DNA of 64,000 nucleotides from a virus, in IMG/VR virus record IMGVR_UViG_3300020057_000027, positions 32,001 to 96,000 of that record; one strand, given 5' to 3'. A program made the translations under genes and the position numbers. Under the pieces are notes generated by a model. It searched no databases and was not told where the DNA came from. It saw only the letters and a list, made by a program, of their open reading frames with translations. Positions 41,955-44,053 of this stretch are shown here, piece by piece (the stretch's first letter is position 1; the number at the start of each line of letters is the position of its first letter).

Positions 41955-41983
41955 TTGACAGAACACTAAAATACCTATATAAT
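41955..41983 (+). promoter_or_regulatory. Consensus sigma70 promoter of tRNA cluster 1
   Basis: TTGACA-17 nt-TATAAT; predicted +1 falls on the ATG at 41990. Confidence 0.85.
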
Positions 41984-41989
41984 AGTCTT

Positions 41990-42079
41990 ATGATAGAAAT
42001 TCGTTCTAACCTATTACCGCTCCCACTCTTATATCCCTCGCGGGATTATAAAACACTCTTGCGTCCATTGGACGCATAA
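41990..42079 (+). CDS. Leu/Pro/Tyr-rich leader peptide MIEIRSNLLPLPLLYPSRDYKTLLRPLDA
   Basis: Leaderless ORF; 14 of 29 codons are L/P/Y, matching the downstream tRNAs. Confidence 0.7.
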   Translation: MIEIRSNLLPLPLLYPSRDYKTLLRPLDA

Positions 42080-42122
42080 TCACACATTCAAATATTAGTA
42101 GAAGAAAAGATAATTAAATTAT

Positions 42123-42199
42123 CTAGGTGTAGCAAAGTTTGGTATTGCGCCCGCTTTGGGAGCGGGAGGCCGCAGGTTCAAATCCTGCCACCTAGACCA
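42123..42199 (+). tRNA. tRNA-Pro(UGG)
   Basis: Cloverleaf, TTTGGGA loop, CCA. Confidence 0.93.
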
Positions 42200-42202
42200 T
42201 AT

Positions 42203-42286
42203 GGGAGTTAAGACATACGGACTTGTCGGCTGTCTGTAAAACAGTTGTAGAAATGCAAGGGGGTTCGATTCCCTCAACTCCCACCA
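42203..42286 (+). tRNA. tRNA-Tyr(GUA)
   Basis: CTGTAAA loop, long variable arm, CCA. Confidence 0.9.
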
Positions 42287-42289
42287 TAT

Positions 42290-42374
42290 ACTCTTGTGGC
42301 GGAACTGGCATACGCGGCAGACTTAAACCCTGTTGCCTTCGGGATTGAGGGTTCGACTCCCTCCAAGAGTACCA
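42290..42374 (+). tRNA. tRNA-Leu(UAA)
   Basis: CTTAAAC loop, long variable arm, CCA. Confidence 0.88.
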
Positions 42375-42382
42375 TTTTTTAT

Positions 42383-42459
42383 AGTCAAGTGATGGAATTG
42401 GAATACATACTTGTCTCAAACACAAGGTTTTAAGGGTTCGACTCCCTTCTTGACTACCA
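42383..42459 (+). tRNA. tRNA-Leu(CAA) with short variable loop
   Basis: CTCAAAC loop, A73, CCA. Confidence 0.82.
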
Positions 42460-42510
42460 TTTTTAAAAATAATTTATTGACAAATGCCTTCCCGGCATAT
42501 ATACTACCAC

Positions 42511-42650
42511 AAGTTGAATGAGTTTTGGGATTTTATGTCCCATTTTCTTTTGTGGATTGTAAGCTCTACTACTACCGTGGCGGGTGGTCTTTAGGTAGGC
42601 CTAAAACGAAGACTTTCGGGTTCACTGTAGTGGAGCTTAGAGTTTACAAA
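42511..42650 (+). ncRNA. Candidate rod-like ncRNA
   Basis: Own promoter TTGACA(42477)-17-TATACT; 13-bp stem 42560-42572/42627-42639. Confidence 0.55.
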
Positions 42651-42757
42651 TTTGCAAAATAAAGATTGACAAACGTAGTGAACGTGTGTTATTCTATATA
42701 AAGATAGTCTGATGAAAGGGAAAATCAACTAGGGATAACTTCAACTATCCCATCGGG

Positions 42758-42840
42758 CACACCTGATGAGTCCATAAGGACGAAACAGGGGAGTTAATAG
42801 AGCGTAATAATCGGATCGATTGCTCCTCCCCTGTCGTGTG
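42758..42840 (+). ncRNA. Type I hammerhead ribozyme
   Basis: CACAC-CTGATGA-GTCC ATAA GGAC-GAAA-CAGGGGAG...CTCCCCTG-TC^GTGTG; predicted cleavage after C42835. Confidence 0.9.
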
Positions 42841-43064
42841 ATGAAGGACTTAAGGCCTTAAACCTTATCATCGTTCTTCGGTTGGCAAGTTTCGTCTAAA
42901 CATTTATTGTTGCGCTTTCAGTGACAGCTTAGATTAAGGACGAGTATTAGATGGAATCGCGGGTATTTCCACGCCGAGCATTGCGAAAGCGTACATGTGA
43001 ACACTACCGTATAGTTTGCCTAGTTCTGTAAGATTGATTGGGCTTTTTTGTTTTTAGATATTGT

Positions 43065-43106
43065 ATGTTAAACGGACTGGAACGATTAGAGACTGAGAGA
43101 GCGTAA
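43065..43106 (+). CDS. Candidate Glu-rich leader peptide MLNGLERLETERA
   Basis: Mini-ORF ending 7 nt before tRNA-Glu; 3 of 13 codons Glu. Confidence 0.35.
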   Translation: MLNGLERLETERA

Positions 43107-43113
43107 TTTTTAC

Positions 43114-43188
43114 GTTCCCGTCTTCTAACGGCTAGGAAGTCTGACTTTCAATCAGATAACGAGGGTTCGATTCCCTCCGGGAACACCA
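43114..43188 (+). tRNA. tRNA-Glu(UUC)
   Basis: CTTTCAA loop, cloverleaf, CCA. Confidence 0.92.
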
Positions 43189-43197
43189 AAGGTAATT

Positions 43198-43377
43198 ATG
43201 ACTGATCAAAAATTTGCTGATTTATCTACAGAAGATTTAGAATTAGCTATTGATATGTTTGAACAAACACAGTTAAGAACGAAAGATGTAATTCTTCAAA
43301 ATCAAATTGATGAATTAAAGAAAGAGTTAGACAATAGAAAAAGACCTTTACTTGAAAAGGTTTTACTGAAGGGATAA
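43198..43377 (+). CDS. Small hypothetical protein (59 aa, MTDQKFADL...)
   Basis: AAGGT RBS; read manually. Confidence 0.6.
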   Translation: MTDQKFADLSTEDLELAIDMFEQTQLRTKDVILQNQIDELKKELDNRKRPLLEKVLLKG

Positions 43378-43422
43378 TTATATGACTACAGATATTACAG
43401 ACGATAGAAGCCACGATATTAT

Positions 43423-43497
43423 GGGCTTATGGTCTAATGGTCATGACGCTACTCTGTCTAAGTAGAAGTCCGGGTTCGATTCCCGATAAGCCCGCCA
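43423..43497 (+). tRNA. tRNA-Asp(GUC)
   Basis: CTGTCTA loop, G73, CCA. Confidence 0.9.
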
Positions 43498-43517
43498 CAA
43501 ATTTGCTAAATAGTTTT

Positions 43518-43589
43518 ATGATTAAGTTTCTTTCAATCACGTCCTCATCCACCTGTACATCTACAGGGTCAACAGGCTGTTGCCTGTAA
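43518..43589 (+). CDS. Ser/Thr/Cys/Gly-rich leader peptide MIKFLSITSSSTCTSTGSTGCCL
   Basis: Follows CTAAATA; 15 consecutive S/T/C/G codons matching the downstream tRNAs. Confidence 0.72.
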   Translation: MIKFLSITSSSTCTSTGSTGCCL

Positions 43590-43652
43590 TTCAATTCGCC
43601 CTAACGGGCACATCATCACAAATAAGGGTAGAAGTTTTTCAAATCGCAAAAT

Positions 43653-43727
43653 GCGAATAAGATGTTAATGGATACATGTCAGTTTTCCAAACTGAATTTC
43701 TCGGATCGTTACCGAGTATTCGCTCCA
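43653..43727 (+). tRNA. tRNA-Gly(UCC)
   Basis: TTTCCAA loop, U73, CCA. Confidence 0.88.
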
Positions 43728-43730
43728 TAT

Positions 43731-43804
43731 GCGGGATTAGTATAATGGTATCATGTCACGTTGCCAACGTGAAGACGCGAGTCCGATTCTCGCATCCCGC
43801 TCCA
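43731..43804 (+). tRNA. tRNA-Gly(GCC)
   Basis: TTGCCAA loop, U73, CCA. Confidence 0.9.
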
Positions 43805-43813
43805 ATAGTTTAA

Positions 43814-43887
43814 GCCGTTATAGTATAGTGGTATTATATCCCCCTTGTGAGGTGATGATTCGGGTTCGATTCCTGATGACGGCTCCA
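43814..43887 (+). tRNA. tRNA-Thr(UGU), atypical G37
   Basis: GCC acceptor start, CTTGTGA loop, CCA. Confidence 0.78.
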
Positions 43888-43890
43888 TAT

Positions 43891-43966
43891 GCTTCTTTCG
43901 CCAAGATAGTAAGGCAACCGCCTGCAAAACGGTTATGCGAGGGCGCACATCTCTCAAGAAGCTCCA
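43891..43966 (+). tRNA. tRNA-Cys(GCA)
   Basis: CTGCAAA loop, U73, CCA; atypical T-loop. Confidence 0.8.
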
Positions 43967-43969
43967 TAA

Positions 43970-44053
43970 GGAAGGTACTGCTCAAGGGGGCAATCCGGTT
44001 TGAACCCGGAGGTGATGTAAAAGTCAGGCGTTCGATTCGTCTACCTTCCGCCA
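43970..44053 (+). tRNA. tRNA-Ser(UGA)
   Basis: TTTGAAC loop, long variable arm, G73, CCA. Confidence 0.88.

Follow-up and report, generated by a model that had tools for sequence, protein, structure and literature searches.

How might a phage that carries its own tRNA genes adjust their output to which tRNAs are running short? The question is raised by two tRNA gene clusters, each with a short open reading frame (ORF) in front of it, within the 64,000-nucleotide (nt) stretch of DNA analysed here, termed the window, which runs from base 32001 to base 96000 of a virus record that is 164 kb long and has terminal repeats (IMGVR_UViG_3300020057_000027). By gene content (gp32, ATP-dependent DNA ligase, RNase H and a family B DNA polymerase, from PHROG and Pfam matches) the virus is a T4-like phage; a gp59 gene is found in syntenic relatives, and the host is probably a proteobacterium. 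The codons of each of the two mini-ORFs match the tRNAs of its own cluster, and the match is more than chance. Its simplest reading is a link, made by the ribosome that reads the mini-ORF, between decoding of the matched codons and the tRNA genes. Judged from the sequence, it is probable that a ribosome-read sensor, leaderless and lacking a terminator, stands before the tRNA genes. To the fuller proposition, that the module heading each cluster carries a leaderless codon-matched mini-ORF and that ribosome transit through it sets tRNA output, we give a probability of roughly 55%. The features concerned are:

41955..41983, + strand: promoter P1, TTGACA-17-TATAAT (12/12), its -10 ending 6 nt before the ATG of mini-ORF1
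41990..42079, + strand: mini-ORF1, 29 codons, rich in Leu, Pro and Tyr; conserved core at codons 1-16, MI.I....LPL.LLYP
42123..42459, + strand: tRNA cluster 1, Pro-UGG, Tyr-GUA, Leu-UAA, Leu-CAA, called by ARAGORN and Rfam
43507..43512, + strand: late-type -10 TAAATA, 5 nt before the ATG of mini-ORF2
43518..43589, + strand: mini-ORF2, 23 codons, MIKFLS followed by a Ser/Thr/Cys/Gly run and L; frame, start and stop kept
43653..44053, + strand: tRNA cluster 2, Gly-UCC, Gly-GCC, Thr-UGU, Cys-GCA, Ser-UGA, called by ARAGORN and Rfam, the Cys gene by Rfam only

Mini-ORF1 encodes MIEIRSNLLPLPLLYPSRDYKTLLRPLDA, in which 14 of the 29 codons specify Leu, Pro or Tyr (L/P/Y), with TTA, TTG, CCA and TAT present twice each. 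Mini-ORF2 encodes MIKFLSITSSSTCTSTGSTGCCL: 16 of its 23 codons are for Ser, Thr, Cys or Gly (S/T/C/G), 15 of them in an unbroken run, the Ser codons are all UCN and the Gly codons are GGG and GGC. These compositions, apart from the total of 16, and the identities of the tRNAs in the two clusters had been given in a first-pass annotation of the window; they hold on recounting, and the same tRNA sets were returned by the gene callers, with the reservation about Cys-GCA just listed. Its further statement, that each peptide matches its own cluster alone, is also borne out by the counts of cognate codons, which are 10 for cluster 1 versus 3 for cluster 2 in mini-ORF1, and 0 for cluster 1 versus 16 for cluster 2 in mini-ORF2.

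How unusual is this? Among 617 ATG-initiated mini-ORFs of 20-40 codons in the genome, none reaches the codon content of mini-ORF2, and 1-1.6% reach that of mini-ORF1. The run of 15 S/T/C/G codons is the longest in the six frames of the 164-kb genome, the runners-up being 10 and 9. When frame is disregarded, and the best 12-codon window in any frame up to 135 nt (<=135 nt) upstream is compared with 20000 random 135-mers of the genome, the codon match has P=0.016 for cluster 1 and P<=0.0002 for cluster 2, the few random matches for the latter probably being the site itself. Binomial probabilities, with the amino-acid make-up of the phage's long ORFs as background, are 3e-5 for mini-ORF1 and 4e-7 for mini-ORF2, and in relatives those for mini-ORF2 are 4e-8 to 1e-6. 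The same pipeline gave no enrichment in 25 tRNA units of the cultured freshwater cyanophage S-CRM01 (Fisher P=0.97), so the codon-match statistic is not inflated by tRNA adjacency alone; nor is the design universal.

Each mini-ORF opens a leader, and the two leaders are paralogous copies of a module of ~130 nt. Its common layout is ATGAT(T/A)(A/G)A., a C-rich and G-poor tract, two hairpins, a CAUCAUCAC-like spacer, GTAGAAG, 10-18 nt and then the first tRNA. Across the 164-kb genome, matches to the module pattern are confined to the two clusters, bar one by chance (a third regular-expression match, at genome position 109692, lies inside a gene). Where else is the module to be found? A DNA search of cultured phages gave matches of tRNA length only and no relative, and scans of IMG/VR and JGI metagenomes with proteins and patterns yielded no usable relative; 14 pattern matches in metagenomes carry no tRNA and were set aside as chance matches. 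Relatives were obtained only via protein look-ups in Logan and ENA assemblies, the queries being the 216-amino-acid (aa) gene upstream and the 59-aa gene inside the array. Cluster 1 with leader 1 is also present in L012, L013 and L040, and cluster 2 with leader 2 in L012, L013 and L029, the flanking genes of these four having ~60-68% protein identity. L032-L035 are near-identical strains, and L010, L014, L030, L031 and L036 are relatives without cluster 1, cluster 2 or both. A leader is present in every cluster-bearing relative found and absent from the last five named.

Have the mini-ORFs changed as coding sequence would? The product of mini-ORF2 in the window has the counterparts MIKFLSTSSSSTCHTTGSTGCCL in L012, MIKFFSTSTSSTCHTLTGSTGSCL in L013 and MIKFLSKFSSSTCRTSTGSTGCCL in L029; start, frame and stop are identical in 4 of 4 sequences, and the sole indel is of 3 nt. 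Variable alignment columns fall 6, 6 and 14 at codon positions 1, 2 and 3, and Ser is kept across a change from TCC to AGC, as is Leu across one from CTT to TTG. The synonymous share of differing codon pairs is 0.54 in frame versus 0.08 and 0.15 off frame, a share reached by 0 of 4000 column shuffles (P<1/4000), and Nei-Gojobori dN/dS is 0.10-0.43 in frame for 6 of 6 pairs, with off-frame values mostly above 1. For mini-ORF1 (read as MIEIRSNLLPLPLLYP.., MIKIVSYLLPLPLLYPLPG, MINIVQQSLPLTLLYPLPG and MINIVYQLSPLTLLYPFPG) the signal is weaker than for mini-ORF2 and marginal, the synonymous fraction being 0.35 versus a null of 0.19 (P=0.054). In its four sequences there are 0 stop codons in frame versus 5 and 4 off frame, and each of two codons has three synonymous variants, CCG/CCT/CCC at one and CTC/CTG/CTA at the other. 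The N-terminus MIK(F/I)(L/V)S is common to the mini-ORFs. The central tracts keep composition and not residue order (ITSSS, TSSSS, TSTSS, KFSSS), as would be expected of a codon sensor more than of a folded peptide.

By what route would ribosomes enter ORFs of this sort, neither of which has a Shine-Dalgarno site before it? The geometry of sigma-70 promoters, and that of T4 late promoters, places +1 on the A of each such ATG, and in both mini-ORFs the transcript 5' end, as predicted from promoter geometry only, is the ATG. The spacing, 6 nt past TATAAT and 5 nt past TAAATA, is kept in all relatives: the P1-ATG geometry is equal in L012, L013 and L040, and the late-type -10 of leader 2 is TATAAATA in L013 and L029. 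Nor are the mini-ORFs alone in this. About 20 long ORFs of the phage start in the leaderless layout, with both promoter types; in 11 (62-843 aa) the ATG is 5-6 nt past a sigma-70-type -10, and about nine (53-516 aa) have TAAATA, 5-7 nt and then ATG. The five leaderless ORFs tested each have a Pfam identity (DNA polymerase B, T4-type RNase H, a ClpP-like protease and two metallophosphoesterases), and in one metallophosphoesterase position 1 of the Pfam model aligns at residue 1. With ~20 long ORFs sharing the layout, leaderless initiation appears to be routine in this phage-host pair, which makes it likely that the mini-ORFs are translated as leaderless mRNA. The view of the first-pass annotation that these are real leader ORFs thus gains from their conservation, from the coding-type substitutions, from the ATG at the predicted +1 and from the commonness of leaderless genes, which together make translation very probable. 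Routine leaderless mRNAs, of early and late genes alike, in a T4-like phage matter for gene calling in uncultured phages.

Within the window, leaderless examples are at 33797-33835 (RNase H), 41288-41303 (the 216-aa gene) and 44060-44096 (an 87-aa gene), and several leaderless genes open with MI.. (ATGAT). The leaderless family B DNA polymerase ORF lies outside the window, at genome 28302-30833 (L038:1603-4131), and has by Pfam an intein with a LAGLIDADG-like segment.

At the RNA level, the leaders have in addition these elements:

42033-46, + strand: leader 1 hairpin ATCCC/GGGAT, stems invariant
42060-76, + strand: leader 1 hairpin B, TGCGTCC/GGACGCA, stem sequence different in every relative, hairpin always formed
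42098..42104, + strand: leader 1 GTAGAAG motif, common to both leaders
43552-67, + strand: leader 2 hairpin 1, CCTGTA/TACAGG, inside mini-ORF2
43572-87, + strand: leader 2 hairpin ACAGGC/GCCTGT, inside mini-ORF2, the stop TAA overlapping the last stem base
43628..43634, + strand: leader 2 GTAGAAG motif, 5' of cluster 2

Prediction places the hairpins at matching positions in each of the relatives. In leader 2, one pair of hairpin 1 shows a compensatory exchange from A-U to C-G, the stems being otherwise invariant and the loops variable; the sixth pair of this hairpin comes out misplaced in the MAFFT alignment. Folding z-scores of leader 2 are -2.4 to -3.6, and its segments 1-4 have the alternative pairings 1:2+3:4, 1:3 or 2:4. 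In both leaders, pairing is predicted between the GTAGAAG motif and the 5' part of the mini-ORF. As the hairpins are conserved and evolution is of the coding type, the sequence appears to be under two constraints together. A 9-nt complement between CCGCTCCCA in mini-ORF1 (42017-42025) and TGGGAGCGG in the tRNA-Pro anticodon arm (42156-42164) is perfect in the window only, and there it is the dominant element in the predicted fold of leader and tRNA together; it is not conserved in L012 or L013 and was discarded as a candidate.

Is this then attenuation of a familiar kind? The first-pass annotation had drawn the analogy with trp/his/leu-type attenuators. The leaders of amino-acid operons (trpL, hisL, leuL, thrL, ilvL, pheL) are alike in having a short upstream ORF enriched in the sensed codons, and in thrL and ilvL one leader serves several amino acids. 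However, those leaders control biosynthetic enzymes, whereas tRNA genes follow at the phage locus; initiation there is led by a Shine-Dalgarno site and is leaderless here; and the analogy fails at its defining output element, as the phage leaders have neither a terminator hairpin or U-tract after either ORF nor a clear terminator/antiterminator pair. The proposed logic resembles that of the Rho switches of the tnaC and mgtL type. In tnaC, and in mgtL/mgtP of Salmonella, read-through depends on whether a ribosome pauses at a C-rich Rho loading site or close to one, and in mgtL/mgtP the pausing is codon-specific, at Pro codons; the C/G skew of the phage leaders is only moderate. A T-box riboswitch is unlike what is found here, since Rfam at E<=1 across 38000-46000 detected no T-box with its specifier loop and no other riboswitch, returning only tRNA, tmRNA (transfer-messenger RNA) and a weak hammerhead. 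The closest described layout, as far as it is outlined in 10.1101/834739, is that of the mycobacterial leaderless short ORFs with polycysteine tracts (the 'Cys ribulon'), in which a sensory short ORF with a 5' AUG likewise heads a polycistronic transcript and ribosome pausing in the codon tract regulates the downstream genes with no terminator; the output in that outline is the unmasking of a downstream ribosome-binding site (10.1101/834739). In contrast, the genes downstream at the phage locus are tRNAs with no ribosome-binding site, so unmasking of one cannot apply.

What could the output be instead? On the proposed mechanism each multi-tRNA cluster would be headed by one copy of the leader module, behind a sigma-70 promoter for cluster 1 and a late-type one for cluster 2, and a 5'-terminal AUG at +1 would open a leaderless mini-ORF of 19-29 codons on which ribosomes load. 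The time that a ribosome takes in transit would report how well the cognate codons are being decoded, and would set the share of the transcript that becomes tRNA. A ribosome that stalls within the C-rich codon tract may hide a Rho loading site that a fast ribosome would expose, and when the matching tRNAs are short transcription would continue into the tRNA genes; alternatively, a stalled ribosome may re-route the folding of the leader, for instance the pairing of the 5' part of the mini-ORF with GUAGAAG. As there is no intrinsic terminator, and as control of stable RNA is most effective at transcription, Rho is the best candidate. Hiding of a Rho site or refolding of the leader is offered as a best guess for the output step, a tentative one with the odds clearly against it. 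For the wider proposal, that phage tRNA operons are autoregulated by ribosomes via a leaderless codon-matched mini-ORF, with no intrinsic terminator and through Rho access or folding, we would put the chances somewhat short of even. The link that the first-pass annotation made to the tRNA-cleaving anti-phage defences of hosts is possible but speculative.

How else might the leaders be explained? Translation could be generic: a ribosome on the 5' AUG would shield the tRNA precursor from Rho or RNases, or the ORF would serve to clear ribosomes, which in this host would bind any transcript with a 5' AUG, and the codon match would be a by-product of the C-rich tract and the hairpin sequences. Leaderless initiation is indeed the default in this phage and a terminator is lacking, C-rich tracts give Pro, Leu, Ser and Thr codons regardless, and a hairpin yields Cys plus Thr, TGT and ACA being reverse complements. 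Left unexplained, however, are the amino-acid identity kept through synonymous and codon-family changes, the matches for Tyr, Cys and Gly, and the restriction of each leader's match to its own cluster; we regard generic translation as unlikely, if the least so of the rivals. Might the peptides instead be the point, one Ser/Thr/Cys-rich and the other Pro/Leu-rich, with functions of their own and merely co-transcribed with the tRNAs? Purifying selection and the common N-terminus speak for functional peptides, yet the central tracts hold to a composition and not to an order of residues, the C-terminus of mini-ORF1 has been replaced by a frameshift in the window, and the agreement with the tRNA sets would have to be a coincidence, at P ~1e-5 to 1e-7. 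Nor did PHROG and Pfam find a peptide-modifying enzyme in the 11 neighbouring proteins, most of which have no match at all. Mini-ORF2 was also considered as the precursor of a ribosomally synthesized and post-translationally modified peptide (RiPP), and this was rejected: the longer frame, of 50 aa, begins inside tRNA-Asp and is broken by an insertion in L029. Small functional peptides thus seem an improbable explanation, ranking below generic translation.

The remaining rival dispenses with translation altogether, the leaders being non-coding structured 5' leaders of tRNA precursors, elements for processing or stability in which the open frames are incidental. Much of what is given above would suit it: hairpins in the same place in all relatives, compensatory change in the stem of hairpin B (leader 1) and at one pair of hairpin 1 (leader 2), the z-scores of leader 2, and two ORFs with no Shine-Dalgarno site. 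But it has no account of substitutions that are frame-specific and biased to synonymous changes at P<1/4000, of stop codons that number 0 in frame versus 3-5 off frame, of start and stop codons that are conserved, or of an ATG kept exactly at the predicted +1, as in the ~20 long ORFs, and we consider it the least probable of the three.

The reading in which ribosome transit through the codon-matched mini-ORF sets tRNA output has, for its part, a number of observations to contend with. There are only four independent sequences per leader, and part of the sequence conservation is owed, at the RNA level, to the hairpins. Co-variation of leader codons with the anticodon set, the check named in the first-pass annotation, did not find support, the differences in tRNA content among relatives (Leu-UAG, Gly-GCC, Thr-GGU) being too few and showing no clear tracking by the codons; four CUN codons are kept in the window leader though Leu-UAG is absent, and a His codon is present in leaders of relatives that have no tRNA-His. 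In mini-ORF1 the C-terminal third is not conserved. Both TTG codons and one CCA of the count given above fall in a C-terminal extension made by a frame-changing indel, and that extension is absent from the relatives, whose ORF ends after 19 codons. In the interval from each ORF to its first tRNA, a terminator scan and folds gave no + strand intrinsic terminator, in the form of a GC hairpin with a U-tract, and when leader plus first tRNA were refolded with a ribosome footprint masked there was no change common to the relatives. The C/G skew is modest, with a C/G ratio of 2.2-2.5 over 78 nt, at the 95th-97th percentile of the genome, the cognate-codon tracts themselves having 14 C versus 2 G and 10 C versus 2 G. 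To these are added two frames beside single tRNA genes:

43065..43106, + strand: Glu mini-ORF, MLNGLERLETERA, ending 7 nt before tRNA-Glu, with a coding-type pattern
43382..43465, + strand: Asp-rich ORF, 4 Asp in 13 codons, running into tRNA-Asp

The Glu mini-ORF is present in all seven relatives, with 13-15 codons and an end 3-11 nt before tRNA-Glu, and in some relatives it has a Shine-Dalgarno-like GAGGA or AAGGA upstream. Its substitutions carry a coding-type signal (P=0.016; dN/dS 0.1-0.65), and it has 2-4 Glu codons, 2 in L040, an enrichment that is not significant alone (P=0.21). The Asp-rich frame is the converse, being enriched (P=0.021) with no coding signature (P=0.75). That the latter is part of the system is doubtful, and for the Glu and Asp ORFs as a pair membership is unproven.

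What would follow if ribosome transit does set tRNA output here? A full-text literature search returned no account of tRNA genes, whether of phages or of other genomes, being controlled by a leader peptide, in line with the first-pass annotation, which knew of no such description for phage tRNA arrays; the phage system would be the first such case. To our knowledge, tRNA genes are generally thought to be free of gene-specific feedback. The phage would top up exactly those tRNAs that are running short, also after cleavage by a host anticodon nuclease, and there would be a direct answer to how phages tune their own tRNAs. If ribosomes read a test ORF to set the dose of tRNA, a classical mechanism gains a new regulatory target, and that the sensor can be leaderless and terminator-less points to Rho or RNA folding as its output.

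The clusters are part of an RNA-gene island at 38.7-44.1 kb of the window, in the order tmRNA, directly after it a tRNA with anticodon CAU, cluster 1, two promoter-led non-coding RNAs, tRNA-Glu, the 59-aa ORF, tRNA-Asp and cluster 2. The phage-borne tmRNA, at 38748-39216, has the tag ANSNDFADYALAA, and tags in relatives are ANSNDFVSYALAA and ANSDNFAYALAA; the tRNA with anticodon CAU starts 3 nt past it and is an Rfam-only call, at 44 bits. The acidic 59-aa ORF (43198-43377), between tRNA-Glu and tRNA-Asp, has no match in Pfam or PHROG and belongs to a tiny family: 1.8 billion representatives include only 5-6 clusters of it, in every case next to these tRNAs.

The first of the two non-coding RNAs, at 42477-42665, is a small RNA of ~150 nt from a promoter, P2 (TTGACA-17-TATACT), with an early hairpin plus T-run and a conserved segment GGCGGGT...TTCGGGTTCA; it matched no Rfam family and is present in L010, L012, L013, L014, L029 and L036. 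The same six have the conserved core of the second, a promoter-led non-coding unit of ~350 nt at 42666-43056, which contains a type I hammerhead core (CTGATGA at 42763-69, GAAAC at 42782-86 and GTC at 42833-35), though the match of the unit to Rfam Hammerhead_3 is of 24 bits only. It terminates in a hairpin plus T-run immediately 5' of the Glu mini-ORF. A second hammerhead-like core (ctgatgagtcc..ggacgaaac) is present at L029:1110-1330, within an insert of 230 nt that separates tRNA-Asp from the late promoter of leader 2; with an insert at that place upstream of the promoter, leader 2 behaves as a self-contained module starting at TATAAATA.

Within cluster 2, the tRNA-Cys(GCA) gene at 43891-43963 has a non-canonical T arm and was missed by ARAGORN, its Rfam score being 40.6 bits; the gene is also in L012, L013 and L029. 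Just 3' of cluster 2 in L029, at 2261-3598 of that sequence (L029:2261-3598), is a gene for a CCA-adding enzyme, with PolyA_pol plus HD domains.

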